Positions 6,246-33,737 of a stretch of 64,000 nt of DNA are shown in pieces. The DNA is from Actinomycetes bacterium (GTDB taxonomy: Bacteria > Actinomycetota > Actinomycetes > JAKEEW01). Numbering within the stretch: the stretch's first letter is position 1; every line of letters begins with the position of its first letter. The notes under the pieces are model-generated. The model was given only the letters and a program-made list of their open reading frames with translations, ran no database searches and was not told the origin of the DNA. The DNA lies in assembly GCA_036001885.1 (NCBI GenBank), contig DASYTV010000295.1, forward strand, positions 3,982 through 67,981. Reading direction: 5' to 3'. A program made the position numbers and the translations under genes.

Positions 6246-6845
6246 TCAGGGACGGGCAGACACTCCCGTGAGGGTGAAGAACTCGGTGCGGGAGCGGGCG
6301 TCTTCTCGCAGGGTGCCGAGCAGTGTGGAGGTGATGGTCGTGGCGCCGACTGCTTGCACGCCACGCAGGGTCATGCACAGATGCTCGGCCTCGATGACCA
6401 CGCCGACACCCTTGGGCTGCAGGTGGGTGATCAGCCAGTCGGCGATCTGTTTGGTCAGGCGTTCCTGGAGCTGAGGGCCGTGGGCGAAGAGTTCCACCAC
6501 GCGGGCGAGCTTGGATAGGCCGAGAATGCGTTCGCCGGGCAGGTAGCCGACGTGGGCGACGCCGACGAAGGGCAGCAGGTGGTGTTCGCACACCGACCGG
6601 ATCGGGATGGCGCGGCCCAGGACGAGTTCGTCGTAGCCCTCGTCGTTGTCGAACGTGGTCAGCTGGAACTCGCGGGGAGTGAGCAGTTCGGCGTACGCGC
6701 GAGCCATTCGGGCTGGGGTGTCGGCCAGTCCGTCGGTGTCACAGTCGACGCCAAGGGCGGCCAGGAACGCGGCGGCCGCCCGTTCGGCGGCGGCCAGGTC
6801 CCGGCCGTGCCGCCCGTGTACGACCCGCAACGGAGTGAGGGTCAT
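6246..6845 (-). CDS. folE: GTP cyclohydrolase I (FolE type I)
   Basis: Strong family hallmarks: ..SVCEHHLLPFVGVAHVGYLP..GLSKLARVVELFA..PQLQERLT. Confidence 0.9.
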   Translation of the reverse strand: MTLTPLRVVHGRHGRDLAAAERAAAAFLAALGVDCDTDGLADTPARMARAYAELLTPREFQLTTFDNDEGYDELVLGRAIPIRSVCEHHLLPFVGVAHVGYLPGERILGLSKLARVVELFAHGPQLQERLTKQIADWLITHLQPKGVGVVIEAEHLCMTLRGVQAVGATTITSTLLGTLREDARSRTEFFTLTGVSARP

Positions 6846-7708: not shown

Positions 7709-8056
7709 TCAAACCGGCAGTGCGGTTCCCACCGGCGTCCTCGGATCGACGTCGGGCCGCGTGGTCACGCAACTCGCCGTGCGAACGTCGGTCCGAGACA
7801 TCGCGGGTCCGGGAAGTCCGGGTGGCACGGACATAAAGGGCCTGGGGGCGGCCACGTCCCGGCGGCGAGCCGGCGGAAGCGCCGGTGGGCGCGGTGGGAC
7901 CTGGCGCCCGTCGGGGAGCAGTTCACCATCGTCGTCAAAGAGGACCACGCCGTTGCACAGGAGACTCCAGCCTTGCTCCGGGTGGGCGGCCACCACGCGG
8001 GCAGCCTGGCGATCGACGGCATTCCACTGTGGGCAGGGCGGCTTGTGCTGGCACAT
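7709..8056 (-). CDS. Small conserved actinobacterial protein (DUF5999-like), C-terminal extent uncertain
   Basis: N-terminus MCQHKPPCPQWNAVDRQAARVVAAHPEQGWSLLCNGVVLFDDDGELLPDG resembles a small protein family with a HPEQGWSLLCNGV core that I recall as widespread in actinobacteria. Confidence 0.3.
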   Translation of the reverse strand: MCQHKPPCPQWNAVDRQAARVVAAHPEQGWSLLCNGVVLFDDDGELLPDGRQVPPRPPALPPARRRDVAAPRPFMSVPPGLPGPAMSRTDVRTASCVTTRPDVDPRTPVGTALPV

Positions 8057-8479: not shown

Positions 8480-8863
8480 ATGGCCAAGAAACCACGTATG
8501 GATCGGCCACGCCGGCGTTCGTTTAGCCCGGCGGAGAAACTGCGGCTGCTCGCCGGGTACGAGGCGGCGACCGAGTCGGGCACCGGTAACGCGTTCCTGC
8601 GGGAGAACGGGCTGTACTCGTCGTTGATCAGTGAGTGGCGCCGGACCCGCGACGCGGGTCTGTTGACCGGGAAACCGGCCGGTGCGGTGGTGGGCCGGCC
8701 GTCAGCGGATCAGGCGGAGATCGCCCGGTTGCGCCGTCAGCTCGATGTCGCCGAGCGTCGTCTGGCCCGTACCGAAGCAGCTCTGAGCATTATGGGAAAA
8801 GCTCAGGCGCTCTTGGAGGAAATCTCCGAGAGCGCGGACACACCACCGACGTCGAGGCGGTGA
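8480..8863 (+). CDS. IS3 family transposase OrfA (helix-turn-helix)
   Basis: MAKKPRMDRPRRRSFSPAEKLRLLAGYEAA.. is the classic OrfA N-terminus, followed by a leucine-zipper-like C-terminus. A GGGAAAAG slippery-like sequence sits near 8797 in the OrfA/OrfB overlap. Confidence 0.85.
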   Translation: MAKKPRMDRPRRRSFSPAEKLRLLAGYEAATESGTGNAFLRENGLYSSLISEWRRTRDAGLLTGKPAGAVVGRPSADQAEIARLRRQLDVAERRLARTEAALSIMGKAQALLEEISESADTPPTSRR

Positions 8864-9880
8864 TGACCGGCGCCTACCACCAACTGCGGGTGCACGTCTC
8901 GCACCGGGCCGCGGCCGGGCTATCGGGGATATCCCGGGCCACCGCCCACCGCCAGGGCGTCTACGGGCCGGCGCGGCCGCCGGTGCCGCGCCGGGCGCCG
9001 GTGAACCGGCTCAGCGAGGCCGAACGGGCCCGGATTCTGGCCGTGCTCAACAGTGACCGCTTCGTTGACACCACCCCGGTGGAGGTGTTCGCGACCCTGC
9101 TGGACGAGGGTGTCTACCTGGCGTCGGTGGCCACCCTGTATCGGGTGTTGCGGGCGAATCGGCAGGTCGTGGAGCGGCGCCGGCAGGCCCGGCACCCGGC
9201 CCGCACCAGGCCGGAGTTGATCGCGACCGGTCCGGGGCAGGTGTTCAGCTGGGACATCACGAAACTGCCCGGCCCGACTCGGGGTGTGTACTACGACGCC
9301 TACGTGATGATCGACATCTTCAGCCGCTACATCGTCGGGTGCAAGGTCGCCGCGACCGAGTCCGCCCTGCTGGCCGAGGATTTCATCACCGACGTGTTCG
9401 CCGTGCACGGCGTCCCCCAGGTCGTGCACGCCGACCGGGGCACCTCGATGACGTCGAAGAAGGGTCGCTGATCTGCTCGCCGACCTGCACGTGCTGCGCT
9501 CGCATTCACGCCCGCACGTGTCGAACGACAATCCGTACTCCGAAGCGGCGTTCAAAACGGTCAAATACCATCCGACGTTCCCGACCCGGTTCGGGTCGAT
9601 CCGGGACGCCCGCACGTTCTGCGACAACTTCTTCACCTGGTACAACCACGAACATCACCATAGCGGCATCGGCTTACACACCCCGGCGGCCGTCCACTAC
9701 GGACACGCCAGCGCCGTAACCGTTGCCCGGCAACAGGTCCTGGACACCGCCTGGGCTCAGAATCCCGAACGATTCACCCGCCGGCCTCAACCGAAGACCC
9801 TGCGACTGGCCGACACTGCCTGGATCAACAAACCCGAACCCGCCACCGACCAAGCCGAGGCCCTGACCCTCGCTGCTTAA
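8800..9880 (+). pseudogene. IS3 family transposase OrfB (DDE integrase core), interrupted by a +1 frameshift near 9455-9475
   Basis: Frame 8635-9471 carries the rve core (..DITKLP..YYDAYVMIDIFSRYIVG..VVHADRGTSMTSKK). Frame 9491-9880 continues with NDNPYSEAAFKTVKYH..YNHEHHHSGIG. The two would join if one nt were removed. Confidence 0.75.
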
Positions 9881-11955: not shown

Positions 11956-12948
11956 ATGCGCGTTGGACTCTACTTCGATCTACGGAATCCGCACCGTTGG
12001 CGGCAGGACCCCGCCCGATTGCACGCGTTCACCTTGGAGCTGTGCGAGGAGGCCGACCGACTTGGCATCCACTCGCTGTGGTTCACCGAGCACCACAAGT
12101 TCGACGACGGCTACCTCAGCCAGCCGCTCACCTTCGCGGCAGCGGTTGCCGCGCGGACCAGCCGTGCCCGGATAGGGACCGCGGTCTTGGTGGCGCCGCT
12201 CCATCACCCGGCAAGGCTTGCCGAGGAAGCGGCGCTGGTCGACCTGATCTCAAACGGCCGGCTCGAGATCGGGCTGGGCGCCGGCTATCGCAAGCCGGAG
12301 TACGAGCTCTACGGCGCCTCGATGGACGGGCGGTACGGGCAGACGGATGCCCAGATCCGGACGCTGCGATCGTTGTGGGGCGATGGCGGGGTGACCCCTC
12401 AGCCGGTGCAGCATCCCATACCGCTGTGGCTGGGCTACCTCGGACCGCAAGGAGCGGGACGCGCCGGTCGTCTCGGCACCGGTCTGCTGACCGCGAACGC
12501 CGCGATGTGGATCTATTACCGCGAGGCGCTGGTCAGCGCCGGCCACGACCCATCCGACGGACGGATGGCTGGCGGCATCCAGGGCTGGGTCTCAAACGAT
12601 CCCGAACGCGACTGGGTCTGGGTATCCGAGCATCTCGAGTACCAGCTCAACTCCTACCGCAGACACATGGTTGAAGGGACCGGCCAGCCGATCCCCCGGC
12701 CCGTGGACGTGGACAAGGTGCGGAGCCGGCAGCCACGCGCCAGCACCGACTATTTCTTCCTCGAGACCCCGGACCGGATGGCAGACCGAGTCCGGGCCTA
12801 CACAGCCGGCGCGCCGGTCGAGACCGTCTTCTTCTGGGCGTCTCTGGCCGGCATGTCAGAGGAACGAGCCGCCGAACACATCCAGCTGGTGTGCAACAAG
12901 CTCGCACCGCAGCTAGCTGGGCAGAGTGTCCAACCTGAGGAGAGCTAG
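11956..12948 (+). CDS. LLM-class (luciferase-like) flavin/F420-dependent oxidoreductase
   Basis: MRVGLYFD.., ..LWFTEHH.., ..GRLEIGLGAGY.. hallmarks of the family. Start chosen at MRVGL. Confidence 0.85.
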   Translation: MRVGLYFDLRNPHRWRQDPARLHAFTLELCEEADRLGIHSLWFTEHHKFDDGYLSQPLTFAAAVAARTSRARIGTAVLVAPLHHPARLAEEAALVDLISNGRLEIGLGAGYRKPEYELYGASMDGRYGQTDAQIRTLRSLWGDGGVTPQPVQHPIPLWLGYLGPQGAGRAGRLGTGLLTANAAMWIYYREALVSAGHDPSDGRMAGGIQGWVSNDPERDWVWVSEHLEYQLNSYRRHMVEGTGQPIPRPVDVDKVRSRQPRASTDYFFLETPDRMADRVRAYTAGAPVETVFFWASLAGMSEERAAEHIQLVCNKLAPQLAGQSVQPEES

Positions 12949-13699
12949 CGTGACTGCGCGACTGGATGGGCGGGTGGCCCTGGTAACCGGAGCAGGCCAG
13001 GGCATCGGCCGTGGAACAGCCTTGGCGCTCGCGAAAGAGGGCGCCGCGGTGGGGATTGCCGGGCGCACGCTGTCGAAGTGTGAGGCCGTCGCTGCCGAGA
13101 TCCAGACCCTTGGCGGCAGGGCGCTGCCGATCGCGTGCGATGTGGGCGTGCGCGTGCAGGTTGATGCTGCGGTCGCGGCAACCGTAAGCGCTTTCGGTGG
13201 CCTCGACATCCTGGTGAACAACGCCCAGGCGTCCGGGCAGGCCGCGCTGGCGGACACGACCGACGAGGACGTCGATCTGGCCTGGCGCACCGGCCCGCTC
13301 GCGACGCTCTACGCGATGCAGTCCGCTCTTCCTTACCTGCGTGCCAACGGCGGCGGGACGGTCGTGAACTTCGGATCGAGCACAGCCATCGAGGGCAACG
13401 TCGCGTTTGGCGCCTACGCGATGGCCAAAGAGGCGATTCGGGGGCTCTCGCGGGTGGCCGCGCGTGAGTGGGGGCCGTTCGGCATCCGGGTAAACGTGAT
13501 CGTGCCCAATGCCCTGTCGCCGGCGTCGGAGGACTTTCGAGACGCGTATCCGGAACGGTTCGCGCGCATGGAAGCGCGGGTGCCGCTCGGTCGGGTGGGT
13601 GATCCGGAGAACGATATCGGCAGGGCGGTCGTGGCGCTGGCCGCCGACGACCTGACCTACCTGACCGGACAGACCCTGATGCTGACGGGGGGTGCGTGA
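12926..13699 (+). CDS. SDR family oxidoreductase
   Basis: VALVTGAGQGIGRG, NNAQ, YAMAKEA. A GTG at 12950 preceded by gaggag is a likely alternative start. Confidence 0.85.
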   Translation: MSNLRRASVTARLDGRVALVTGAGQGIGRGTALALAKEGAAVGIAGRTLSKCEAVAAEIQTLGGRALPIACDVGVRVQVDAAVAATVSAFGGLDILVNNAQASGQAALADTTDEDVDLAWRTGPLATLYAMQSALPYLRANGGGTVVNFGSSTAIEGNVAFGAYAMAKEAIRGLSRVAAREWGPFGIRVNVIVPNALSPASEDFRDAYPERFARMEARVPLGRVGDPENDIGRAVVALAADDLTYLTGQTLMLTGGA

Positions 13700-13713: not shown

Positions 13714-14268
13714 ATGGCCGCGAGGATCGCGCGGCTCGAGGATCACCTGGAGATCCAGCAGCTGCCGATCCGTTACGCGATGGCGGTGGACGGTCGCGAT
13801 GTCGAAACCTGGCTCGCGCTGTTCGTCGCGGACATCGACCTGGGCCGTCACGGCCGGGGCCGACAGGCGCTTCGGGAGCTCATCGCACCTCAGCTCCGAT
13901 GGTTCTATCGGTCCATCCATCAGATCGTCGGTCATCGGGTGGAGCTGCTCGGGCCTGACATGGCCCGCGGGCACGTGTACTGCCGAGCCGAACACGAGGT
14001 CGGTGACAGGTGGATCGTCATGGCGATCCGGTACGACGACGAGTATCGGAAGGTGGACGGCCAGTGGCTGTTCTCGCGGCGACGAGAGCGGCACTGGTAC
14101 GCGGCCGACGTGAACGAACGCCCACAGGCGGTAGCCTTCGACAGTTGGGGCACCACTCCCGGAGGACCCGCGCTTCCACAGATCGCTGGAACGTGGGATG
14201 GCTTCTGGGCGGGGCATGACCCAAGCGACGTGACGTCGCAGCCTGCCCGGAAGGCGGCGAAAACGTGA
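13714..14268 (+). CDS. NTF2-like / SnoaL-like domain protein
   Basis: ..ARLEDHLEIQQLPIRYAMAVDGRDVETWLALF.. is typical of the family. Overlaps neighbours by 4 nt on both sides. Confidence 0.7.
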   Translation: MAARIARLEDHLEIQQLPIRYAMAVDGRDVETWLALFVADIDLGRHGRGRQALRELIAPQLRWFYRSIHQIVGHRVELLGPDMARGHVYCRAEHEVGDRWIVMAIRYDDEYRKVDGQWLFSRRRERHWYAADVNERPQAVAFDSWGTTPGGPALPQIAGTWDGFWAGHDPSDVTSQPARKAAKT

Positions 14269-15428
14269 GAGCCGGGCTGGTGCCTCCGATGGTCACGCTC
14301 TCTCCGCACAGCGAGGCTCTGCGCGACGAGGTGCGCTCCTTCCTGGCCGACGAGCGCGCCGCCGGTGCATTCGTTCCACGAGTGGACTCCTGGATATCGG
14401 GATGGGACGAGCAGTTCAGCCGTAGGCTGGCCGATCGTAGGTGGCTCGGCATGACCATCCCGACGGAGTACGGCGGACACGGCCGGTCGTATCTGGACCG
14501 GTACGTCGTGACTGAGGAGCTGCTCGCGGCCGGCGCGCCGGTAGCGGCGCACTGGGTAGCGGACCGTCAGGTGGGGCCCTCGTTGATGAGGTACGGCACT
14601 GACGAACAACGGCGGCGCTACCTCCCCGGGATCGCCCGCGGCGAGATCTTCTTCGCCATCGGCATGAGCGAGCCGGAGGCGGGGTCGGACCTGGCCAACG
14701 TTCAGACTCGGGCCGTCAAGGTGGCGGGTGGCTGGAAACTGAGCGGTACGAAGGTGTGGACTTCCGGCGCCCATCACGCGAGAGCATGCTTCGTCCTCGC
14801 GCGCAGCGAACCGTTGGACGCCGCTCACCGCCATGCCGGGCTGAGCCAGTTCATCGTCGAGCTCGACTCGCCGGGCATTGACATCCGACCGATCAAGCTG
14901 TTGACGGGGCAACACCACTTCAACGAGGTCCTGCTGGAGAGCGTCTTCGTTCCGGATGCGCTCGTCCTGGGCCGGGCCGGCGACGGGTGGGCGCAGGTAA
15001 CCTCAGAGCTGGCCATCGAGCGAAGCGGTCCGGAGCGCATCCTGTCGACCTTCCCGCTCCTGGTCTCGTATCTCGTGGAGCTCGAGCGGAAGGCCGACGT
15101 CGACGTCGAGGACACGGGCGTGGTCGGCGCTCTGTTGGCCCGAATCCTCACGTTACGCCAGCTGTCACTGTCGATCGCGGGCTCGCTTGCGGACGGCAAA
15201 CCGGTAGACCTCCCCGCGGCGACGGTCAAGAACCTCGGCACGCGGTTCGAAGGGAAGCTCGTCGAGCTCATTGCGAGCCATGCGGACACCGCCCCGGATC
15301 CGGATGCCCCTGATCCGTTCGCGCACATGCTTGCTGAGGGCCTTCTCCATGCCCCCGGTTTCACCTTGCGCGGCGGAACGTCGGAGATCCTGCGCACCGT
15401 GATGGCACGAGGATGGGGGCTTCGGTGA
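14265..15428 (+). CDS. Acyl-CoA dehydrogenase family protein (alpha/beta pair, first subunit)
   Basis: ..GMSEPEAGSDLANVQTRA..W.LSGTKVWTSGA.. are ACAD middle-domain motifs. Overlaps the next ACAD by 16 nt. Confidence 0.9.
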   Translation: MRAGLVPPMVTLSPHSEALRDEVRSFLADERAAGAFVPRVDSWISGWDEQFSRRLADRRWLGMTIPTEYGGHGRSYLDRYVVTEELLAAGAPVAAHWVADRQVGPSLMRYGTDEQRRRYLPGIARGEIFFAIGMSEPEAGSDLANVQTRAVKVAGGWKLSGTKVWTSGAHHARACFVLARSEPLDAAHRHAGLSQFIVELDSPGIDIRPIKLLTGQHHFNEVLLESVFVPDALVLGRAGDGWAQVTSELAIERSGPERILSTFPLLVSYLVELERKADVDVEDTGVVGALLARILTLRQLSLSIAGSLADGKPVDLPAATVKNLGTRFEGKLVELIASHADTAPDPDAPDPFAHMLAEGLLHAPGFTLRGGTSEILRTVMARGWGLR

Positions 15429-16567
15429 ACGCGAGTGTCACGGTGCCCGCACTGCCGAGCGAGGCAGACCTCGATGAGCTGCGCGCGCTCGCACGTTCCA
15501 TCTTCTCCAGATCCGCCGCCGAGACTTTGAACATACAGAGAACGGCGACTCCCTTCGACGACTCGCTCTGGCAGACGCTCGCCGCGTCCGGACTCACTCT
15601 GCTGAGTACACCGGAGTCGGCGGGCGGCAGCGGGGCGGGTATCGCCGAGACTGCGGCCGTGCTCACAGTGGGGGCGGCGCACGCCGCACCTGTCCCGATC
15701 GCGGAGACCGACCTCCTGGCCGCTTGGTTGTTGGTCGTCGCTGGCCTGGACGTTCCGTCTGGGCCGTTGACCTCAGGCGCGGGGGAGGTCTCGATCTCGG
15801 ACGGCCCGGCCGGCAGCCTGGTCGTGTCCGGGACGTTGGAGCGGGTGCCATGGGGCCGGGCAACGGAGGCCATCGTCGTGCTCGGCAGCACCGGCGAACG
15901 TGATGTCGTCTTCGTCGTGCCGTCGGGCCGCTGCAGCATCACGGCTGGCCACAATCTTGCGCACGAACCGCGTGATTCCGTCCGGTTCGAGATCGACCTC
16001 TCCTCGCACCACATCGTCTCGGTGGGCGGGGCCGTCCGCGCCGAGTGGGTTCTTCGAGGTGCCCTGGCCCGCGCGGCCCAGACGTGCGGGGCATTGGAGA
16101 GGGCGCTCGCGTTGAGCGTGGACCACGCGTCTTCGCGGATCCAGTTCGGGCGCCCGCTCGGCAGGTTCCAAGCCGTCCAGCACCTGATTGCGGAGGCGGC
16201 CGGCGAGGTGACCATCGCGCGCGCCGCACTGGATGTCGCGATCAGGACGGTGGCACAGCGAGGGTTTGCCAACCCAAATGCGGAGCTCGCCGTCGCCGTC
16301 GCCAAGGCGCAGGCCGCGGCCGCTGCGGTTGTGGTCAGCAGGGCAGCTCATCAGGTGCACGGCGCCATCGGGTTCACGCTGGACCACCAGTTGCGGCACT
16401 TCACCCTGCGGGCGCTCGCCTGGCGAGGTGAGTTCGGCGACGAGCGTTCATGGCAGCGTCGGATCGGGCAGATCGCGCTCGACGCGGGTGGGGAAGGCAT
16501 CTGGAACCTGATCACATCAGGACTGCCGGACGCACAGTCATGTCCGTCGCATCCTGAGACGGGTTGA
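15413..16567 (+). CDS. Acyl-CoA dehydrogenase family protein (second subunit of pair)
   Basis: ACAD fold with the C-terminal ..FQAVQHLIAEAA..AKAQAAAAA..HQVHGAIGFT... Confidence 0.85.
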   Translation: MGASVNASVTVPALPSEADLDELRALARSIFSRSAAETLNIQRTATPFDDSLWQTLAASGLTLLSTPESAGGSGAGIAETAAVLTVGAAHAAPVPIAETDLLAAWLLVVAGLDVPSGPLTSGAGEVSISDGPAGSLVVSGTLERVPWGRATEAIVVLGSTGERDVVFVVPSGRCSITAGHNLAHEPRDSVRFEIDLSSHHIVSVGGAVRAEWVLRGALARAAQTCGALERALALSVDHASSRIQFGRPLGRFQAVQHLIAEAAGEVTIARAALDVAIRTVAQRGFANPNAELAVAVAKAQAAAAAVVVSRAAHQVHGAIGFTLDHQLRHFTLRALAWRGEFGDERSWQRRIGQIALDAGGEGIWNLITSGLPDAQSCPSHPETG

Positions 16568-16585
16568 CCGGCGCGGTCAGTGTTG

Positions 16586-16616
16586 TTATAAACAGTTAAC
16601 TGATTCATCTGATTGT
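16586..16616. promoter_or_regulatory. AT-rich operator-like site TTATAAACAGTTAACTGATTCATCTGATTG; core CAGTTAACTG is a perfect palindrome, followed by two TGATT half-sites
   Basis: Lies 17-47 nt upstream of the GTG start of the DUF35-thiolase-SDR-ABC operon. Confidence 0.45.
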
Positions 16617-16632
16617 ACCGTCGCCGAGGAGG

Positions 16633-17103
16633 GTGGCTGTGACGAACGCCGTGCGGATCCCGGTCGCAGAGGGTCTCTTCACCTGGCCAGACGAGCGCCC
16701 TCGGCTGATCGGGTCACGCCATCCGCAGACGGGTGCCGTCAGCTTCCCGGCCGCGGAGCCGGGAGCCGGCGAGGAGCAAGTGCTGCTCTCACCGGTCGGG
16801 ACGCTGTTCACCTGGACGACGCAACAGTTCGTCCCGCCCTCGCCGCCCTACGCCGGAGACACGGATGCCGAGTCGTTCCAGCCTTACGCCGTCGGCTACG
16901 TGGAACTCGCGGAGGGAATCCTCGTCGAGGCCCTTCTGACCGAGTCGAATCCGCAACGGCTCACCATCGGACAGGAGATGGAGCTCGTGGTCATTCCGTT
17001 TCGACTCACATCCGGCACAGACGGCGCTCCCGAGCGCGAGATCATGACGTTCGCCTTCTCGCCGGTCGCCAGCGCCGCACCCGCCGAGACGGCGACACCA
17101 TGA
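16633..17103 (+). CDS. Zn-ribbon/OB-fold protein (DUF35 family), partner of the thiolase-like protein
   Basis: Size, ..FVPPSPPYAGD.. and ..YAVGYVELAEGILVEALL.. OB-fold segments fit the family. A 4-nt overlap couples it to the next gene. Confidence 0.8.
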   Translation: MAVTNAVRIPVAEGLFTWPDERPRLIGSRHPQTGAVSFPAAEPGAGEEQVLLSPVGTLFTWTTQQFVPPSPPYAGDTDAESFQPYAVGYVELAEGILVEALLTESNPQRLTIGQEMELVVIPFRLTSGTDGAPEREIMTFAFSPVASAAPAETATP

Positions 17104-18245
17104 GCCGGGTCTCGATCATCGGTGTCGGGCTGCATTCCTTCGGGCGGTTCGGTGCCAAGCAGGCGATCGACATGGGCGCCGAGGCCACGCGTCTCGCGTT
17201 GGCCGATGCCGGCGTCACCTGGGACCAGGTACAGCGTGGTTACGCCGGAAGCCTCGAAGTGTCGAATCCTGACGCCGTGGTCGGGAAGCTCGGGTTGACG
17301 GGAATCCCGTTCTTCGGTGTCTTCAATGGATGCGCTACGGCGAACACGGCGGTCACGATGGCGGCCGAGGCAATCGAGCACGGCGACGCTGACATCGCGG
17401 TCGCGGTGGGCTTCGACAAGCACCCCAGAGGCGCGTTCGCCGGCGACCCGTCGGTTCTTGGCCTGCCCTCCTGGTATGGCGCGACAGGACTGTTCCTGAC
17501 CACGCATTTCTTCGGCATGAAGATCAACCGGTACATGGCGATGCACGGCATCTCACGCGAGACCCTGGCCAAGGTTGCGGCGAAGAACTTCCGCAACGGC
17601 GCGAGGAACGACAAGGCTTGGCGGCGCACACCGATGAGCGAGGAGGAGATCCTCGCGGCGCCGTACCTCAACTATCCGCTCACGAAGTTCATGTATTGCG
17701 CGCCGAACGAGGGTGCCGGCGCGGTCGTCCTCTGTCGACGCGATCTGGCCTCTCGATACTCCGACAGCCCGATCCACCTCGCCGCCTGGGCGCTGCGCAC
17801 GAGGCGACACGGTGCCTTCGAAGTGCAGAGCCCGTCGTTGCCTGCCGCCGGTACGCCGAGCCCGACGGTCGACGCGGCGAGGGCGGCATTCGAAACGGCC
17901 GGAATAGGGCCGGACGACGTCCAAGTCGCGCAGCTGCAAGACACCGATGCCGGTTCCGAGGTCATCCACATGGCCGAGAACGGCTTCTGTACCGACGGCG
18001 AGCAGGAGAAGCTGGTCGCCGAAGGGCACACGGAGATCACCGGGAAGCTTCCTGTCAACACTGACGGTGGACTGATGGCCAACGGTGAACCCATCGGTGC
18101 CTCCGGTCTCCGGCAGATCCATGAGGTCGTCCTCCAGCTCCGTGGGCGCGCAGGGACCCGGCAGATCCCTGGCCCGTCCAAGGTGGGCTACACCCACCTC
18201 TACGGAGCCCCCGGAACCGGCGCCGTCACGATTCTCACCACCTGA
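17100..18245 (+). CDS. Thiolase-like protein, SCP-x/lipid-transfer-protein type (Ltp2-like)
   Basis: MSRVSIIGVGLHSFGRF.., ..GVFNGCATANTAV.., C-terminal ..NTDGGLMANGEPIGASGLRQ.. are thiolase-superfamily hallmarks. Confidence 0.85.
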   Translation: MSRVSIIGVGLHSFGRFGAKQAIDMGAEATRLALADAGVTWDQVQRGYAGSLEVSNPDAVVGKLGLTGIPFFGVFNGCATANTAVTMAAEAIEHGDADIAVAVGFDKHPRGAFAGDPSVLGLPSWYGATGLFLTTHFFGMKINRYMAMHGISRETLAKVAAKNFRNGARNDKAWRRTPMSEEEILAAPYLNYPLTKFMYCAPNEGAGAVVLCRRDLASRYSDSPIHLAAWALRTRRHGAFEVQSPSLPAAGTPSPTVDAARAAFETAGIGPDDVQVAQLQDTDAGSEVIHMAENGFCTDGEQEKLVAEGHTEITGKLPVNTDGGLMANGEPIGASGLRQIHEVVLQLRGRAGTRQIPGPSKVGYTHLYGAPGTGAVTILTT

Positions 18246-18247
18246 GC

Positions 18248-18991
18248 ATGGCCGTGGTACCGAAGGCCCAGGACGCTTCGAGGGACGGTTTGGTCATCCG
18301 GGCCACAGCGTTGGTGACCGGCGGCACGGGCGGCCTCGGCTCTGCTGTCACGCAGCGGTTGCTCCAAGCCGGCTGGCGGGTGGTGGTTCCGTGGATCGTG
18401 GAATCGGAGCTGGCGCGCCTTCCGTCCACCCACCCACGACTCGAGCTGGTGGAGGCCGATCTCTTCGACCCGGACGGCGCCGCCGATGTCGTCGGCGTGG
18501 CGGCGGGCGATCCAGACACGCCGCTGACGGCGGTAGCCAACCTGGTCGGCGGCTTCGCGATGGGCCGGCGGGTGCACGAGAGCCCGATCGACGAGTTCGA
18601 GCACCTGATGCGACTGAACCTGCGACCGACATACCTGACCACCCAGGCAGCATTACCGCATCTGATGAAGATCGGACGAGGCTCGATAGTCGCCGTCTCC
18701 GCCAAGTCGGCCTTTGCGCCCTTCCCCGGCGCGGCTGGTTACCTCACCGCGAAGGCCGCAGTCTGGGCACTCGTTCAAAGCCTGGCAGCCGAGTACAAGG
18801 ACGACGGGATTCGGGTCAACGCGATCCTCCCGTCCGTGATCGACACACCCGGCAATCGAGCGAGTCAACCCGCCTCCAGCCGGGCCGGCTGGGTCTCGCC
18901 GGCAACCATCGCGGACGTCGTGGCGTTCCTGTTCAGCGACGAGGCTGCCGCCGTCACCGGCGCGCAGATCCCAGTCCCTGGCGTCGGATAG
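18248..18991 (+). CDS. SDR family oxidoreductase
   Basis: ALVTGGTGGLGSAV Rossmann motif and YLTAKAA catalytic dyad. Confidence 0.8.
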   Translation: MAVVPKAQDASRDGLVIRATALVTGGTGGLGSAVTQRLLQAGWRVVVPWIVESELARLPSTHPRLELVEADLFDPDGAADVVGVAAGDPDTPLTAVANLVGGFAMGRRVHESPIDEFEHLMRLNLRPTYLTTQAALPHLMKIGRGSIVAVSAKSAFAPFPGAAGYLTAKAAVWALVQSLAAEYKDDGIRVNAILPSVIDTPGNRASQPASSRAGWVSPATIADVVAFLFSDEAAAVTGAQIPVPGVG

Positions 18992-19049
18992 CCGACGCCG
19001 GCACGCACCGTCAAGAGAAGCAATGGCGCCGCCGTCTAGACACTATCAG

Positions 19050-19091
19050 AATAATCATATAGATTATTAAGTGGATCGTGATCATGATCAC
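19050..19091. promoter_or_regulatory. Two AT-rich palindromes upstream of the ABC transporter genes: AATAATC-atata-GATTATT and perfect GTGATCATGATCAC
   Basis: Read directly. The first contains AATCA/GATT half-sites. They lie 50-90 nt upstream of the 19142 start. Confidence 0.45.
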
Positions 19092-19141: not shown

Positions 19142-21901
19142 GTGACTGACGTCCTGCCGTTCATCATCGCGGGCCTCGCCGTCGGATCCGTGTACGCTCT
19201 GGCCGGCTCCGGGCTGGTCCTGACGTTCAAAACCTCGGGGATATTCAACTTCGGGCACGGTGCACTCGCGACGGTGGCCGTCTACGTCTTCTACGTCATG
19301 TACCAAGTGGCAGAGCTGCCTCTTGTGCCGTGCCTGGTCGTCAGTGTCCTCGGCGTCGGTGTGGCGCTCGGCCTGTTGATGGAGCGGCTGGCGCGGCGCT
19401 TGTCGAGGGCCCCCATCGCCCTGCAGACCGCGGCCACCGTCGGCCTGATCCTCATCGCCCAAGCGGGCGCACGGCTCGCCTTCGGTCCAGCTCCCCTGAC
19501 GTTTCCGCACTATCTCCCTGAGGGCACGGTCGAAGGTCTCGGAGTCGTGGTGACCTACGAGCAGGTCGTGACCATGGCGGTCGCCCTGGCCGCCACTTTG
19601 GCACTCGGGGTCTTCTTCAAGAAATCCCGTCTGGGCCTCGCCATGCGGGGTGCCGTCGACGACCCCACTCTGCTCGCGATGACCGGCACATCTCCCGTCG
19701 TGGTGCGTCGCGCCGCGTGGATCGCCGGGTCGATCTTCGTCTGCTTGTCTGGTGTGCTTCTGGCGCCCAGCGTGAACCTCGACTCGATGGTTCTGACCCT
19801 GCTGGTCGTCCAGTCGTTCGGCGCGGCGGCCATCGGGCGCTTCTCGCATATCCCCCTGACCTACGTCGGCGGCCTCGCGATCGGGGTGATCTCCGCGCTG
19901 ATCACCAGATACGTGAGCCAGACCAGCCAGTACTTGGCGGGACTGAGCCAGAGTGTCCCGTTCATCGTGCTCTTCATCGTGCTGATCGTCACTCCGCGGT
20001 CGAAGCTGGTCGACCACCGGACCAGCGCGCCTCGCCCCACCACTGGCTGGCGCGCTCCCGGCAGGGTGCAACTGGTCGGCGCCCTGCTGATGCTCGTCGT
20101 CCTGGCGTCCGGTCCGGTCTGGTTCGGCGCACGACTCCCGTCGTTCACGGTCGCACTCAGCTACGTCCTGCTCTTCCTTTCGTTGGGTCTGCTGGTCAAG
20201 AACTCCAACCAGGTCTCCCTGGCGCACATTGGCTTCGCCGCAACCGGGTGCGTTGCCTTCTCGGTGGCGCGGGTCGAGTGGGGGCTGCCATGGACAGTCG
20301 CCCTGGTTCTGGCCGCGCTCATCACCATCCCCATCGGCGCGTTCATCGCTTTCCCCGCGATCCGGCTCTCGGGAATCTTCCTGGCGCTCGCCACGTTCGC
20401 CTTCGGCCTGATCTTGGAGGTCATGTTCTACAACAGCGAGCTCATGTTCGGCCCGAGCACCGCCGGTCTGCCGATGCCCCGGCCGCAGGTCTTCGGCCTG
20501 GACACCGACGTCGGGTACTACTACCTGGTCCTGACCGTCGTCGTCGTATGCACGCTGTTTGTCGTCGTCCTTCAGCGCATGCGACTCGGCCGCCTGCTAC
20601 GAGGATTGGGGGAGTCTCCCGTCGCCCTCGAGACCAGCGGCGCCTCGGTGCGGCTCACGAAGCTCATCGTGTTCTGCCTCTCGGCCGGGATGGCGGCGAT
20701 AGCAGGCGCACTCTACGGAAGCACGTTCTCCAACGTCGGTGGCCTCTCGTTCCAGTCTTTCAGCTCGCTGACCTTGCTTGTCCTGTTGCTGCTCATGCCG
20801 GGTTCGGAACCCTGGTACGCGGTGCTGGGAGCCTTCTTCCTGGTCGTGCTGCCCACGTTCCTTCCAGGAGGAGAGACGGCGGCTGAGGTCATGACGCTGA
20901 TCTTCGGCGCTTCGATCGTCGTGGCGGGTCTTCAACAGGGGCGGCACCCCACCCTCCCGGCGCGGCTGACGGCGTTTCTGGACCGCGTCGGCGGTCGGAC
21001 GCCGCGTGAGCAACCGAGTGGGGCCAAGGAGAACGCCGCTCCTGTCGACGAGCGCACCCTGCAGGTCCCGAGCCGAGCATCCCAAAGCGATCAGTCCGGC
21101 GGCGCCGGTCTGGGCGTCCGAGACCTGAAGGTCCGCTTCGGTGGTCACCTGGCGGTCGACGACGTCAGCCTCGAGGCGCCGATGGGAAGGATCACCGGAC
21201 TGATCGGACCCAATGGAGCGGGGAAGACAACGACCTTCAACGTGTGCTCCGGTCTCCTGAAGCCGACTGCCGGTCGGGTCTTCCTCAAGGGAGAGGACAT
21301 CTCGTCCCGGCGGCCGGCCGCCCGGGCCGGTCGGGGACTGGGCCGCACGTTCCAGCGCATGCAGCTGTTTGACAGCATGACCGTTGCCGAGAACATCTCG
21401 CTTGGGCGTGAGGCCGGGCTGGCAGGTGCCGGCTTTCTCACCCAGATCCTCGGCAGGCCCCACGACCGCTCAGCGCTTGCCGCGGCGGCGACGGACGCCA
21501 TGCGGCTCTGCGGCATCAGCCACCTGGCGGACGCCCTGGCCGGTCAGCTCTCGACAGGGCAGCGGCGCATGGTGGAGCTCGCGCGTGCGCTCGCGGGGTC
21601 CTTCGACGTCCTCCTGCTCGACGAGCCGTCGTCGGGGTTGGACCGGGCGGAGACCGAGCTGTTCGGACGAGTGTTGCTTCGGGTCGTGCATGAGCGCGGC
21701 ACGGCGATTCTGCTGGTCGAGCACGACATGACCCTGGTCATGGACATCTGCGACTACGTCTACGTCCTCGACTTCGGGCAGCTGGTCTTCCAGGGCACGT
21801 CGTCCGAAGTGGCAGCCAGCGACACGGTACGGGCCGCTTACCTCGGCTCGGAGGAGATCGAACCCGCACCGGCGTCGGTCGTCCAAGGAGTGCGGCCATG
21901 A
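19142..21901 (+). CDS. Branched-chain-amino-acid-type (Liv) ABC transporter, triple fusion LivH permease + LivM permease + LivG ATPase (919 aa)
   Basis: N-terminal LivH-like TM domain. Central LivM-like TM domain (..IGFAATGCVAFS.. to ..LTLLVLLLLMPG..). C-terminal ABC ATPase with Walker A GLIGPNGAGKTT, LSTGQRR signature and Walker B LLLDEPSSGL. Confidence 0.85.
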   Translation: MTDVLPFIIAGLAVGSVYALAGSGLVLTFKTSGIFNFGHGALATVAVYVFYVMYQVAELPLVPCLVVSVLGVGVALGLLMERLARRLSRAPIALQTAATVGLILIAQAGARLAFGPAPLTFPHYLPEGTVEGLGVVVTYEQVVTMAVALAATLALGVFFKKSRLGLAMRGAVDDPTLLAMTGTSPVVVRRAAWIAGSIFVCLSGVLLAPSVNLDSMVLTLLVVQSFGAAAIGRFSHIPLTYVGGLAIGVISALITRYVSQTSQYLAGLSQSVPFIVLFIVLIVTPRSKLVDHRTSAPRPTTGWRAPGRVQLVGALLMLVVLASGPVWFGARLPSFTVALSYVLLFLSLGLLVKNSNQVSLAHIGFAATGCVAFSVARVEWGLPWTVALVLAALITIPIGAFIAFPAIRLSGIFLALATFAFGLILEVMFYNSELMFGPSTAGLPMPRPQVFGLDTDVGYYYLVLTVVVVCTLFVVVLQRMRLGRLLRGLGESPVALETSGASVRLTKLIVFCLSAGMAAIAGALYGSTFSNVGGLSFQSFSSLTLLVLLLLMPGSEPWYAVLGAFFLVVLPTFLPGGETAAEVMTLIFGASIVVAGLQQGRHPTLPARLTAFLDRVGGRTPREQPSGAKENAAPVDERTLQVPSRASQSDQSGGAGLGVRDLKVRFGGHLAVDDVSLEAPMGRITGLIGPNGAGKTTTFNVCSGLLKPTAGRVFLKGEDISSRRPAARAGRGLGRTFQRMQLFDSMTVAENISLGREAGLAGAGFLTQILGRPHDRSALAAAATDAMRLCGISHLADALAGQLSTGQRRMVELARALAGSFDVLLLDEPSSGLDRAETELFGRVLLRVVHERGTAILLVEHDMTLVMDICDYVYVLDFGQLVFQGTSSEVAASDTVRAAYLGSEEIEPAPASVVQGVRP

Positions 21902-22596
21902 CCGACTTCGCATTGCGCCTGGACGCTGTCACAGGAGGTTACGGAGACACCACCGTCCTGCGCGACGTCTCCCTCGACGTGAAGAAAGGTACGGTCGTCG
22001 CCCTGCTCGGTCCCAACGGCGCGGGAAAGTCGACGCTGCTCAAGATGATCTCCGGAGTGATCACGCCGAAACGAGGTCGGATTCTTCTCGGAGACTCCGA
22101 CGTCACTCGTCACAGTGTTCACCACCGAGCTTCCCAGGGCTTGTGCCATATCCCCGATGGGGGAGGCATCTTCCCTTCGCTGACCGTGAAGGAAAACCTC
22201 GTCCTGGCCAGCCCCAAGGGCATGGAGCGGGAGGCCATCGAGAGGGCAACGAACGCATTCCCGGCCCTGGGCCAAAGACTCGGCCAGGTCGCGGGCAACC
22301 TCAGTGGTGGACAGCAACAGATGCTCGCGGTCGTCAGGTCCTACCTCAGCTCCGCGGACCTCATCTTGATCGACGAGGTGTCGATGGGGCTCGCGCCGAT
22401 GGTGGTCGACGAGATCTTCGCCTTCATCAGCGACCTGTCGGCGCGCGGCACGAGCATGCTGCTGGTCGAGCAGTACGTCACGCGCGTTCTGGCCATCGCA
22501 TCACACGTCTACATGCTCAATCAGGGTTCGGTGACCTTGAGCTCCTCAGCGGAGGAGGTTCGCCGAAGTGACCTCTTCGAGCACTACATGTCATAA
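21898..22596 (+). CDS. livF: Liv-type ABC transporter ATP-binding protein (LivF-like)
   Basis: Walker A LLGPNGAGKST, LSGGQQQM signature, ILIDEVSMGL. Confidence 0.9.
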   Translation: MTDFALRLDAVTGGYGDTTVLRDVSLDVKKGTVVALLGPNGAGKSTLLKMISGVITPKRGRILLGDSDVTRHSVHHRASQGLCHIPDGGGIFPSLTVKENLVLASPKGMEREAIERATNAFPALGQRLGQVAGNLSGGQQQMLAVVRSYLSSADLILIDEVSMGLAPMVVDEIFAFISDLSARGTSMLLVEQYVTRVLAIASHVYMLNQGSVTLSSSAEEVRRSDLFEHYMS

Positions 22597-22687
22597 GGCG
22601 CCGTACCCGCAGGTTCAGGGTCGACTCCGCAAGCCCAAAGCCGTGAGCCCAGGAATATCGAGTAAACATCAACCAGAGGAGATGCAC

Positions 22688-23887
22688 ATGATCGGCTTCC
22701 ACCGTGCGCGAGTGCGAGGAACGGTTGGACTGGCGCTCGCGGGCTTGGTGCTCGCCACGATGGCGGCCTGCAGCAAGGACCAGCCCCTCACCAAGTCCAC
22801 CGCGACAGGCACACCCGTCAAAATCGGCGTCATCGTCAGTCTTTCCGGCAAGCCCCTTCCGGCTACGGCGGCCGCCGAGGGCCTCAAGGCGTGGGCAACG
22901 ACGGTCAACGGCAAAGGCGGCCTGCAAGGCCACCCGGTGGAAATCGTCGTCAGAGACGACGGAAACGACCCCACGAAATCTCTCACGGCCGTCAAGGAGC
23001 TCGTGGAGAAGGACGGCGTGGTTGCCATCAGCTCATGGACCGGCGTCGAGACGAGCTGGGCCGACTACGTCGAGAAGCAGCACATCCCGGTCGTCGGCGG
23101 GCAGAACTACGCGCCCGTGTGGCAGGCGAACCCCGTGTTCTTCCCCGTGCAGTCGACACTGGGGACAGCGATGACTTCGCAACCGTTGATGGCAAAGAAC
23201 GCCGGCGCGCGCTCGATCGGCTCCTACTACACGGCGGACGTCGCCAACGCCGTCGAGGCGGTCAAGGCAATCGACGGCATTGCGAGCTCTCTTGGCCTGC
23301 ACGCGACGTTCAATGCGGCGATCAGCTCGAGCCAGCCGAGCTTCATCGCGCCGTGCCTCGCCGCCAAGAAGGCCGGAGTTGACGCGATGATGATCGCGGG
23401 CGTGCCCGTGGAGCGGATCACGCCGAGCTGTGCCCAACAGGGCTTCAAGCCGATGTGGATCCTGCCTGGTGAGGTCGTGACCTCGCAGGTCCTGAAGACG
23501 CCCCAGCTCGGGGACGTCCTGGCGCCACAGATGGCCTTTCCGTTCTTCATCCAGGACTCCGCCACCAAGGACTACCGATCGGCGATGGAAACCAACTACC
23601 GCGGACCCAAAGACGAGAAGTTCAGCCCACTGACCTCGTCTGCCTGGATGACGGGGCTGGTTTACCGGCAGGCGTTCGACAACATCGGAGCCAAGACGTC
23701 GGTGACGTCCGCGGACGTTCTCGACGGGCTGTACCAGGTGAAGAACTTCACCGGTGGCGGACTGCTCCCTGGCCTCACCTACACGAAGGGCCAGGCGAAG
23801 CGGACCGTGGACTGCTTCTGGGAGACCAGAGTGCACGATGGCAAGTGGGTCGCCGTCAATGGGCTGAAGACGACCTGTATCTCCTGA
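22688..23887 (+). CDS. ABC transporter substrate-binding lipoprotein (LivK/type-I periplasmic-binding fold)
   Basis: Signal peptide with lipobox LATMAAC. ..IGVIVSLSGKPLPATAA..VEIVVRDDGNDP.. is typical of Leu/Ile/Val-binding-family SBPs. The aggag RBS sits 6 nt upstream of the chosen ATG. Confidence 0.85.
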   Translation: MIGFHRARVRGTVGLALAGLVLATMAACSKDQPLTKSTATGTPVKIGVIVSLSGKPLPATAAAEGLKAWATTVNGKGGLQGHPVEIVVRDDGNDPTKSLTAVKELVEKDGVVAISSWTGVETSWADYVEKQHIPVVGGQNYAPVWQANPVFFPVQSTLGTAMTSQPLMAKNAGARSIGSYYTADVANAVEAVKAIDGIASSLGLHATFNAAISSSQPSFIAPCLAAKKAGVDAMMIAGVPVERITPSCAQQGFKPMWILPGEVVTSQVLKTPQLGDVLAPQMAFPFFIQDSATKDYRSAMETNYRGPKDEKFSPLTSSAWMTGLVYRQAFDNIGAKTSVTSADVLDGLYQVKNFTGGGLLPGLTYTKGQAKRTVDCFWETRVHDGKWVAVNGLKTTCIS

Positions 23888-27253: not shown

Positions 27254-28609
27254 ATGGACGACACGCGAACACAGCTGCTCGACATGATCGTCGCCCCCGA
27301 CTCGGCGTACGACCAGCCGTGGGGTGAGCTGGCATCGGCGCGCCTCAAGGCAGCCGACGAGCTGTTTCAGCAGCGACGCGAGCAGATACCGCTGCTGGCG
27401 AAGCGTGCCGAGGACGCCGGCGTCGCGAAGATCCGTGACTTCGACGATCTGGTGCCGCTCCTGTTCGCACACACCGTCTACAAGTCCTACCCGCAGTCCT
27501 TCTACGAGCGGGGCCGCTGGGACCGGATGTTGCAGTGGTTGAACACCCTTTCGGTGAACGACGTGACCGACGTCGACGTCGCGGGCGTGACCGACGTGGA
27601 CGAGTGGCTCGACCGGCTCTGGGCCGCCGGGCATGCGGTCATCGCCACCAGTGGTTCGAGCGGGAAGTGTTCCTTCCTGAACCACACCATGGGCGATCGG
27701 GCCAGGAAGACCCGCCACTTCAAGTACTCGTCCGGCTGGCCCTTCGCCCATGCCGACGGCGATCATGCCTACTTCTGGCTCGGCCCCTCGTCCGGGCGGA
27801 CCAGTGCCGTCGAGGCGTTCGTCGCGAACTCGGAGAACTGGGGCCGCCCGGGCGAGATCTTCGCGCTGTCCGACGAGCCACTGCTGATCTCAGACGTGAG
27901 CGAGACGGCAGCCTTTCGCGCCAAGATGGCCGGCGGTACGGCGACCCCGGACGAGATCGCAGACATGGAACGACGAGGTGCCGCGAAGGCCCAACGTGTC
28001 AGAGCCGATCTCCTCACGTTCACCGAGCAGATAGTCGGTTTCCGGCACCGACCGATCTTCCTGAGCGGCATGTGGAGTCAACACATGATGATCATCGAGC
28101 GCGCCCGGGAGCTCGGCGTCGGGGACGGCGAATTTCATCCAGACAGCGTCATCGGCGCGGGCGGCGGTGTGAAGGGCGTCACTCTGCCGCCGGACTACCA
28201 GGACCACATCGGCCGCTTCTACGGGGACGTCGTCAGGTTCGCGGTCTACGGAATGACGGAGCTCGCCCAGCCCCTACCGCGTTGTGAGGCCGATCGCTAT
28301 CACGCCGCCCCAGGCCTCATCATGCTGCCGCTGGACGACAGCGGTGAGCGGCTCCTTACGCCGGCGGACTCGACCGACGGACTGGTGCAGGCGCGCTTCG
28401 GGTTCCTCGACCTGGCCTACGACGGCCGGTGGGGCGGGCTGATCACCGGGGACCAAGTCACGGTCGACTTCTCGGAGAAGTGTCCGTGCGGAAGGTTCGG
28501 TCCGACTCTCCTCGACAACATCGGGCGCTTCGCCCAGGCCGGGCAGAGCGACCACATCGGGTGCGCGGGAACCATCGACGCCTATATCAGGGGAGTGACA
28601 GGAGCATGA
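27254..28609 (+). CDS. LuxE-family acyl-protein synthetase (adenylate-forming)
   Basis: ..AVIATSGSSGKCSF.., ..VIGAGGGVKG.. and the C-terminal ..FLDLAYDGRWGGLITGDQV.. parallel the TSSGTNGLKS, ITGGGWK and C-terminal blocks I recall from Vibrio LuxE. Stop overlaps the next start (ATGA). Confidence 0.75.
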   Translation: MDDTRTQLLDMIVAPDSAYDQPWGELASARLKAADELFQQRREQIPLLAKRAEDAGVAKIRDFDDLVPLLFAHTVYKSYPQSFYERGRWDRMLQWLNTLSVNDVTDVDVAGVTDVDEWLDRLWAAGHAVIATSGSSGKCSFLNHTMGDRARKTRHFKYSSGWPFAHADGDHAYFWLGPSSGRTSAVEAFVANSENWGRPGEIFALSDEPLLISDVSETAAFRAKMAGGTATPDEIADMERRGAAKAQRVRADLLTFTEQIVGFRHRPIFLSGMWSQHMMIIERARELGVGDGEFHPDSVIGAGGGVKGVTLPPDYQDHIGRFYGDVVRFAVYGMTELAQPLPRCEADRYHAAPGLIMLPLDDSGERLLTPADSTDGLVQARFGFLDLAYDGRWGGLITGDQVTVDFSEKCPCGRFGPTLLDNIGRFAQAGQSDHIGCAGTIDAYIRGVTGA

Positions 28610-33672: not shown

Positions 33673-33737
33673 GAAGAGGCACGCCGGCTGGGTCCGGCTC
33701 GACCACGACCTGTGACGCAGGCAAGAAGGGCTCAGCG

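Follow-up and report, generated by a model that had tools for sequence, protein, structure and literature searches.

Analysis of a 64-kb window (the whole stretch of DNA studied here, from contig DASYTV010000295.1 of an Actinomycetes bacterium; ~67% G+C) showed a gene string encoding two acyl-CoA dehydrogenases (ACADs; ACADa and ACADb), a DUF35 protein (DUF35_1), a thiolase-like protein (Thl1) and an SDR oxidoreductase (SDR1), with the coordinates given in Table 1. With moderate confidence, the region is best explained as encoding one chain-shortening turn of beta-oxidation type that acts on a branched or bulky acyl-CoA. Its substrate would probably be an alicyclic or isoprenoid-like carboxylate, which we infer from the presence of a luciferase-like (LLM) oxidoreductase, Amidohydro_2 proteins, a PaaK-like ligase, a carboxyltransferase and aldehyde dehydrogenases. 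A sequence-only reading made earlier had taken the string for a steroid-side-chain-like module; the gene string proved real and well conserved, and that interpretation is partly supported.

About 60 genes of the window were scanned for Pfam domains, and the gene starts and the map were adjusted by gene calls on matching metagenome contigs. The string was also found on contigs of many metagenomes, with Thl1 indexed in 51 blocks of the collection. Because it recurs across metagenomes and a DUF35 gene was followed by Thl1 in 80/80 genome loci, the arrangement is not a chance pattern of open reading frames (ORFs).

The acyl-CoA dehydrogenase pair

The top PDB matches of ACADa were alpha subunits (IpdE1 6wy9_A, 144 bits; ChsE4 4x28_A, 139 bits), and those of ACADb were beta subunits (ChsE5 4x28_D and IpdE2 6wy8_A, 81 bits each). 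Alignment to the window's other ACADs showed that ACADa retains GMSEPEAGSD, WTSG and the ER base, and that a deletion at the RxxFGxPxxxFQ position and a missing QxHGGxG leave it with no ADP-side FAD motifs. In the same alignment, ACADb retained the ADP-side motifs RIQFGRPLGRFQ and QVHGAIG and had no signature 1, WTS or catalytic Glu, with a gap or no Glu at the base position and no YEG-type Glu. The catalytic Glu252 of ACADa aligned to Glu247 of ChsE4, and its Pro92 to ChsE4 Pro89, a residue that unwinds helix E and enlarges the pocket according to a passage of PMC11153573. According to the same passage, the alpha subunit of alpha2beta2 ACADs holds the isoalloxazine and the Glu along with the substrate site, and the ADP-ribose contacts belong to the beta subunit.

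Since the homology is subunit-wise and the motif loss complementary, with one catalytic Glu, ACADa and ACADb are assigned as an alpha/beta pair of the ChsE/IpdE type. The earlier claim of an ACAD pair of alpha2beta2 type is supported at the sequence level, as each subunit best matches its own class and the FAD motifs are split between the two; the opposite case, in which both ACADs would carry complete Glu and FAD motifs, was looked at, and each of the two was incomplete. The preference stated earlier for a bulky or branched substrate over plain fatty acids is reasonable, with ACADa keeping the pocket-widening proline. The 16-nt overlap reported between the two genes holds with the ATG start of ACADb at 15413, but with the GTG at 15425 (380 aa), a start also used by the gene callers of other contigs, it becomes a 4-nt GTGA overlap.

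On NCBIfam, the best model for ACADa was pimC_large (140 bits against a cut-off of 624), and ACADb scored 76 bits with IpdE2 (cut-off 450) and 58 bits with pimD_small. As no curated cut-off was reached, the two are classed by sequence as a new paralogous pair and not as the orthologue of a characterised one. ACADa/ACADb resemble ChsE4-ChsE5 (FadE26-FadE27) and IpdE1-IpdE2 (4X28, 6WY8/6WY9) in their adjacent, translationally coupled genes, alpha-to-alpha and beta-to-beta matches, base Glu and isoalloxazine-side motifs in alpha, ADP-side motifs only in beta and pocket proline, but the scores are just 81-144 bits and the curated cut-offs are unmet. The partners also differ: ChsE/IpdE work with a MaoC-DUF35 hydratase and Ltp2, whereas here there are a stand-alone DUF35, a Cys-bearing thiolase-like protein and an SDR, and steroid genes are not nearby. 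Pimeloyl-CoA dehydrogenase PimC/PimD (TIGR03204/TIGR03203) is likewise a two-subunit ACAD beside a Liv-type ABC importer, with the importer presumably next to PimC/PimD in the R. palustris pim locus; unlike it, ACADa is far under the cut-off and ACADb scores lower with pimD_small than with IpdE2.

Two further ACADs of the window, at 40706-41932 (-) and 46371-47546 (+), were pimC_large-like and kept the ER base and signature 1. Both were alpha-like, without RxxFGxPxxxFQ and QxHGGxG, and neither adjoins a beta-type gene.

Thl1 and its zinc-ribbon-less DUF35 partner

PDB searches with the Thl1 sequence matched 6hsj (zebrafish SCP2-thiolase type-1, 175 bits), BbsB (126 bits) and Ltp2 (79 bits). 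Its AlphaFold 2 (AF2) model (pTM 0.84) gave a TM-score (TM) of 0.81 to SCP2-thiolase (6HRV), followed as nearest matches by archaeal DUF35-associated thiolases and BbsB. Three independent pairwise alignments, to 6hsj, BbsB and 7yvy, placed Cys78 of Thl1 on the nucleophilic Cys, replaced the HDCF/HDAF loop by Q280-D-T-D and replaced the GHP loop by G329-E330-P331. Classical thiolases have fingerprints that include the CxS, HDCF and GHP loops (PMC3406046), and a triad of Cys89, His348 and Cys378 with His348 in the GHP motif.

A family alignment of 85 sequences was made from Thl1 and 84 homologues of 64-80% identity from 80 genomes (Nocardia, Rhodococcus, Mycobacterium, Streptomyces, Frankia, Amycolatopsis, Acidimicrobiia and Microthrixaceae). 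C78-A-T, L-Q-D-T-D and N-G-E-P were invariant in 85/85. A search of 1.8 billion representatives brought in further C/QD[TAV]/GEP proteins with identities as low as about 36%, some of them from Binatia and Dehalococcoidia, and these deeper relatives also have a DUF35 gene immediately upstream. Other relatives at a like distance carry HD[AC]F/GHP; the neighbour-joining tree of the relatives is too crude to separate a single origin of the Gln/Glu state from two. Ser replaces the nucleophile Cys in seven HD[AP]x/GHP relatives (P0153, P0185, P0194, P0235, P0247, P0255 and P0269).

The earlier label of SCP-x-type thiolase for Thl1 did not hold: the fold and Cys78 are present, but the histidines of HDCF and GHP are replaced. 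Nor did an aldolase-type thiolase within the flagged module, where Cys78 and QDTD stand in place of the Gly and the Tyr of YD[HC][FY]. On its active-site residues Thl1 fits neither the true SCP-x thiolases nor the aldolases of Ltp2 type and is a Cys/Gln/Glu variant. Thl1 and eight deeper relatives reached no NCBIfam cut-off (the BbsB model gave 143 bits on Thl1 against 750), its cluster names read "thiolase family protein" and nothing more specific, and in PDB searches with Thl1 and the deeper relative P0140, all the matches displayed residue by residue were to HD[CA]F/GHP structures. A full-text literature search found no study of the clade, characterised member or substrate. AedK of the oestrogen pathway and CurH were considered as relevant relatives and rejected, the former being Ltp2-like and the latter a canonical Cys-His-Cys thiolase.

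The zinc-ribbon stretch of DUF35_1 contained zero Cys, and the BbsA model gave no match for it in the NCBIfam scan. Among the DUF35 partners of Thl1 proteins, about one third were Cys-less like DUF35_1 and about two thirds were C4. DUF35 homologues treated in the Sal paper, including BbsA, bind zinc via C4, and Shy has three Cys and one His (PMC12329534, in part).

By sequence (about 31% identity) and by fold, SCP2-thiolase type-1 (6HSJ) is closest to Thl1, and the Cys of the CxS loop is kept, but Thl1 has QDTD/GEP, no SCP2 domain and a DUF35 partner. BbsAB (7PXP) and the archaeal thiolase/DUF35 complexes (6ESQ, 7YVY) share the order of DUF35 then thiolase with an SDR after, which we take to be the gene order of the bbs operon. 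They also share the SCP2-like fold (TM about 0.8), the Cys and a third HDCF-motif position without Cys. In contrast, BbsB and the archaeal enzymes have HDAF/GHP where Thl1 has QDTD/GEP, and BbsA is C4 where DUF35_1 has no zinc-ribbon Cys.

The second thiolase-like pair

The second pair reported earlier, in the reverse gene order, was confirmed, with the thiolase-like gene (Thl2) preceding its DUF35 gene (DUF35_2). Thl2 matched 4U4E (177 bits), Ltp2 6ok1_A (149 bits) and Sal 9myr_A (125 bits), while the top PDB match of DUF35_2 was ChsH2(DUF35) 6ok1_B (94 bits), with a C4 ribbon of the CxxC...CxxC type. The nucleophile position of Thl2 is Asp or Gly, with no Cys, and its Tyr283 aligned exactly to TcLtp2 Tyr294. 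In parts of PMC12329534, Tyr294 is given as the catalytic base of TcLtp2, and the Ltp2/Sal aldolases as having Gly at the nucleophile position and the Tyr base in a YD[HC][FY] motif. Across 118 homologues, the Y-D-P-N motif of Thl2 was conserved (Y 117, D 118, P 105, N 114), and a conserved Tyr331 stands two residues ahead of the Ltp2 Tyr344 column. In the aldolases, the second catalytic role falls to His and Tyr344 in Ltp2 and to Cys304 in Sal.

The Thl2 pair is Ltp2-like and probably forms the retro-aldol branch of the island. The retro-aldolase-like character claimed earlier fits 54326-55899 (no Cys, Tyr283, C4 DUF35) and not the flagged pair at 16633-18245. Thl2/DUF35_2 resemble Ltp2-ChsH2(DUF35) (6OK1) and Sal-Shy(DUF35) (9MYR) in the missing Cys, the Tyr base, the C4 ribbon and a hot-dog gene directly upstream. 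They differ in having Y-D-P-N against Y-D-H-F or Y-D-C-Y, in the second Tyr shifted by two residues in the alignment, and in a DUF35_2 encoded by a gene of its own behind that of the enzyme. YDSF is the motif in the nearest structure, the uncharacterised 4U4E. Judged from their alignments, the YDPN Ltp2-like clade and the Cys/Gln/Glu clade with zinc-less DUF35 are new residue-level variants.

Conservation and neighbourhoods of Thl1 relatives

The closest genomes for Thl1 were a Nocardia metagenome-assembled genome (MAG; 80%) and Rhodococcus (75%). ACAD alpha/beta pairs stood directly upstream of DUF35-Thl1 in the Nocardia nova group and Frankia; in Rhodococcus and Mycobacterium they lay close by. 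Orthologues of the Amidohydro_2 genes at 49039 and 59906 were common neighbours. The Streptomyces operon ran PaaK-like ligase, 224-aa-type protein, SDR, DUF35, Thl1, ACAD and ACAD, its first two genes being orthologues of 52273-53655 and 51587-52261. A Rhodococcus megaplasmid carried an orthologous island of folE, GntR, OB-fold, thiolase, ACAD, MaoC, SDR and TesB genes, continued by ACADs, an amidohydrolase, TetR, a ligase and enoyl-CoA hydratase (ECH). The family was common beyond the classic steroid degraders, in Streptomyces, Frankia and Acidimicrobiia. A groundwater metagenome contig (L092, 2987-9188) held three tandem DUF35/thiolase sets with one KAS III-like protein fused to DUF35.

Regulation

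The gap ahead of DUF35_1 is AT-rich and holds a box of the form TA[AG]CTGATT[CA]. Four exact matches were found in the window against 0.05 expected, the fifth site being a variant at 41999, and all five boxes lie in AT-rich stretches upstream of plus-strand genes (Table 1). In nine Streptomyces loci (L009, L016, L018, L020, L021, L024, L026, L027 and L028, the last with different flanking sequence around it), the box also stood between the gene for Amidohydro_2 and that for the PaaK-like ligase, and it was found in Rhodococcus as well. Orthologues of the GntR/FCD protein of the window adjoined Thl1 clusters in six loci (L096, L048, L044, L037, L029 and L033), and the box lay directly upstream of the GntR orthologue in L029 (Trebonia MAG) and L037 (uncultured Actinomycetota MAG). 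The GntR/FCD protein is a candidate regulator of the box-bearing promoters, and together the shared box and the regulator suggest, with moderate strength, one regulon.

For the gap at 16568-16632, a KstR-type operator was considered and rejected, as the spacing does not fit; the KstR motif, which we take to be TnnAACnnGTTnnA, differs from the box of the window. Upstream of the ABC importer, at 19037-19091, a 19-bp palindrome AATAATCATATAGATTATT overlaps a promoter-like -10, and a second, perfect 14-bp palindrome GTGATCATGATCAC was present; both are likely operators.

Proposed pathway

The module would form two transcription units, LLM-SDR-SnoaL-ACADa-ACADb and DUF35-Thl1-SDR1, in a larger island apparently under GntR/FCD control via the boxes. 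The carboxylate would enter via the adjacent Liv-type ABC importer and be activated by a CoA ligase or CoA-transferase of the island. An alpha2beta2 ACAD (14265-16567) would then make the 2,3-double bond, with Glu252 and the isoalloxazine in alpha and the ADP-ribose contacts in beta. Hydration may fall to the SnoaL-like protein or to any of the five crotonases; in the Rhodococcus counterpart, a MaoC hydratase is encoded. SDR1, a candidate 3-hydroxyacyl-CoA dehydrogenase, would oxidise the 3-hydroxyacyl-CoA, and Thl1 with DUF35 would cleave the 3-oxoacyl-CoA through an acyl-Cys78, with Glu330 as possible thiol activator or proton shuttle and Gln280 as possible oxyanion-hole donor, replacing His/His(/Cys). 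The window offers a catabolic context for such a turn, with the importer, aldehyde and alcohol dehydrogenases, thioesterases and CoA ligases.

Several points weigh against this pathway. The operon contains no hydratase gene, and the two units contain no ligase gene. Within 6 kb of Thl1 homologues, ECH was found in 16/84 loci, MaoC in 6/84 and SnoaL in 4/84, and because the neighbourhoods vary, the Thl1-DUF35 pair may serve several pathways. Thl1 may not be a thiolase at all, since Glu stands at the position of thiolase His348 (GHP), and its AF2 model has pLDDT <50 at 109-136, 190-199 and 240-247, where the thiolase loop regions are located. The TA[AG]CTGATT[CA] box was defined post hoc, on sequences already inspected.

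Alternative explanations

Thl1 and DUF35_1 could instead be a retro-aldolase or other lyase acting on a tertiary-alcohol 3-hydroxyacyl-CoA, with SDR1 serving another step. The replacement of both thiolase histidines in Thl1 fits this, and part of PMC12329534 describes DUF35-bound thiolase-fold proteins as repeatedly repurposed (Ltp2, Sal, PhlC). We nevertheless consider it unlikely: the catalytic Tyr of Ltp2/Sal is missing in Thl1, the nucleophile position is Cys throughout the 85-sequence alignment where the aldolases have Gly, and SDR1 starts 2 nt after Thl1.

A sterol or bile-acid side-chain system equivalent to igr/ChsE-ChsH-Ltp2 appears distinctly improbable. The ACAD pair is nearest to ChsE4/ChsE5 and IpdE1/IpdE2, Thl2/DUF35_2 best match Ltp2/ChsH2(DUF35), hot-dog/MaoC genes flank the pair in the Rhodococcus version, and steroid side-chain cleavage does employ DUF35 and thiolase-fold proteins (part of PMC12329534). 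However, the identities are low, curated cut-offs were missed (IpdE2 76 against 450 bits, CasG 182 against 750), and ACADa scores about equally with pimC_large (140 bits) and with the steroid alphas (144, 139). Thl1 has a Cys and no YD[HC] Tyr, and members of its family are common in Streptomyces as well as Frankia, which to our knowledge are not typical steroid degraders.

Among the about 60 genes of the window, no Pfam match was found to a Rieske oxygenase, ketosteroid dehydrogenase, Hsa-type enzyme or Mce, nor were there domains matching KshA, KstD, HsaA-D or Mce4 uptake, and no scanned protein reached a curated NCBIfam steroid-enzyme cut-off. Nothing in the 64 kb ties the module to steroids. 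Of the steroid-side-chain reading, the type of the ACAD pair and the DUF35/thiolase pairs in both orders remain, but the absence of steroid genes from the 64 kb and the residues of Thl1 do not agree with it.

There is a slim chance that DUF35-thiolase-SDR with hydratase and ACAD runs synthetically, in an elongation independent of ACP or a reverse beta-oxidation of the kind proposed for thiolase/DUF35 complexes of archaea. An archaeal acetoacetyl-CoA thiolase/HMGCS/DUF35 complex was among the close structural neighbours of Thl1, a preprint about a fatty acid synthase complex of archaea gives DUF35 a prominent place, and the Rhodococcus cluster unites thiolase, SDR, MaoC and ACAD. Against this, ACADs are normally oxidative, the orthologous island sits on a Rhodococcus megaplasmid, and the context is catabolic, to which GntR/TetR regulators and many ACAD/ECH paralogues are to be added. 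That Thl1 is a catalytically inert scaffold subunit, as its want of the two canonical catalytic histidines might allow, is highly implausible, given that the active-site loops are its most conserved parts, invariant across Actinomycetota at 64-87% overall identity, and that its unit has no second thiolase.

Gene content of the window

The features discussed above are listed in Table 1, together with their neighbours.

Table 1. Coordinates of genes and sequence elements in the 64-kb window
Feature	Position	Strand	Evidence or remark
LLM oxidoreductase (luciferase-like)	11956-12948	+	Opens upstream unit; Pfam Bac_luciferase 150 bits; start from metagenome gene calls
SDR0, SDR oxidoreductase	12950-13699	+	adh_short_C2 164 bits; metagenome gene call
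SnoaL_4/NTF2-like protein	13714-14268	+	SnoaL_4 68 bits; 4-nt overlap with ACADa
ACADa	14265-15428	+	Pfam Acyl-CoA_dh_N and M domains, no others
ACADb	15413-16567 (alternative start 15425)	+	Pfam weak N domain and C domain
Terminator-like hairpin	16563-16581	+	Across ACADb stop codon; 8-pair stem, then GTTGTTATAA
Box, candidate operator	16597-16606	+	TAACTGATTC; in gap upstream of DUF35_1
DUF35_1	16633-17103	+	OB_ChsH2_C 50.6 bits; OB domain alone, no zf-ChsH2 match
Thl1, SCP2-type thiolase-like	17100-18245	+	Pfam Thiolase_N, Thiolase_C_1
SDR1	18248-18991	+	adh_short 117 bits; TGGTGGLG and YLTAK motifs
Liv-type ABC importer	19142-23887	+	Fused permease/ATPase, second ATPase, Peripla_BP_6 binding protein (22688-23887); Pfam and metagenome gene calls
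Box	36506-36515	+	TAACTGATTC; upstream of ECH gene 36565-37377
Box	38632-38641		Upstream of GntR/FCD gene
GntR/FCD regulator	38719-39468	+	Pfam GntR and FCD
Variant box	41999-42008	+	ATACTGATTC; upstream of ECH gene 42032-42823
Amh2, Amidohydro_2 protein	49039-50196	-	Orthologues flank Thl1 operon in Streptomyces
224-aa protein	51587-52261	-	No family match; paired with PaaK-like ligase (51587-53655)
PaaK-like CoA ligase	52273-53655	-	NCBIfam PaaK 147 bits, under cut-off
Hot-dog fold protein	53725-54336	+	4HBT 32.8 bits; MaoC 20 bits, under cut-off; overlaps Thl2 start
Thl2, Ltp2-like thiolase-fold protein	54326-55480	+	PDB 4u4e 177 bits
DUF35_2	55477-55899	+	zf-ChsH2 45.6 bits, OB 70.6 bits
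Box	61295-61304	+	TAGCTGATTC; upstream of SDR gene 61313-62122

The top NCBIfam match of the LLM oxidoreductase was F420_Rv2161c (115 bits, under the cut-off of 167), and its cofactor is ambiguous between F420 and FMN; orthologues were found near Thl1 in other lineages. The SnoaL_4 protein is a candidate dehydratase/hydratase or isomerase; its PDB matches were weak throughout (LinA, a putative scytalone dehydratase, Rv3472), and BaiE was not among them. An SDR1 orthologue comes after MaoC in the Rhodococcus cluster. The hot-dog protein scored 144 bits to its Rhodococcus counterpart in L007, encoded upstream of DUF35-Thl1.

The inventory given earlier for the island was largely reproduced: seven ACAD-family genes were counted, three Amidohydro_2 genes and one TauD gene were present by Pfam, and a family III CoA-transferase adjoins an ACAD on the Pfam map. 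The six enoyl-CoA hydratases became five of crotonase type, beside which there is a hot-dog protein that matched MaoC weakly. The seventh ACAD-like gene, at 50293-51549 (+), is divergent (M domain 38.8 bits, C domain 25.1 bits, no N-domain match); it sits between the Amidohydro_2 and 224-aa genes and is overlapped by a long opposite-strand ORF, hence it is easily overlooked.

Other observations concerned the rest of the window. At 27254-29997, an ORF of 451 aa, unmatched in both Pfam and NCBIfam, overlaps a LuxC-type acyl-CoA reductase gene directly after it, followed by TauD, Zn-ADH and aldehyde dehydrogenase genes. An acyl-CoA carboxyltransferase subunit stands alone at 33278-35309, with no biotin carboxylase or BCCP genes in the window. 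An insertion sequence (IS) element at 8635-9880, with an rve integrase split into two ORFs, was present in metagenome contigs L001, L003 and L004 and missing from the same site in L002 and L005, and is therefore an insertion polymorphism within the population. The island is flanked by folE (GTP cyclohydrolase I; 6246-6845, -) and a DUF5999 gene (7709-8056, -), and in Rhodococcus, folE likewise adjoins the orthologous island, both on chromosomes (L007, L008) and on the megaplasmid (L096), which hints at a pterin link.

Significance

It is possible, and put forward here only tentatively, that the Cys/Gln/Glu clade, with its zinc-free DUF35 in this lineage and Glu in place of the thiolase His, is a mechanistically new class that cleaves or forms C-C bonds, and that with alpha2beta2 ACADs, Amidohydro_2 and the PaaK-like ligase it makes up a conserved GntR regulon, widespread in Actinomycetota, for an abundant class of bulky carboxylates.

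Heteromeric ACADs and pairs of DUF35 with thiolase-fold proteins are often taken as signatures of steroid catabolism. Here they occur jointly in a conserved module without a steroid context, and steroid annotations therefore need checks at the level of residues. The Thl1 clade is a natural experiment in rebuilding a thiolase active site, with the Cys kept, one His changed to Glu and the other to Gln, while the zinc-less DUF35_1 tests the need for a zinc ribbon in the partner role. The box and the GntR regulator provide an experimental handle for finding the substrate.

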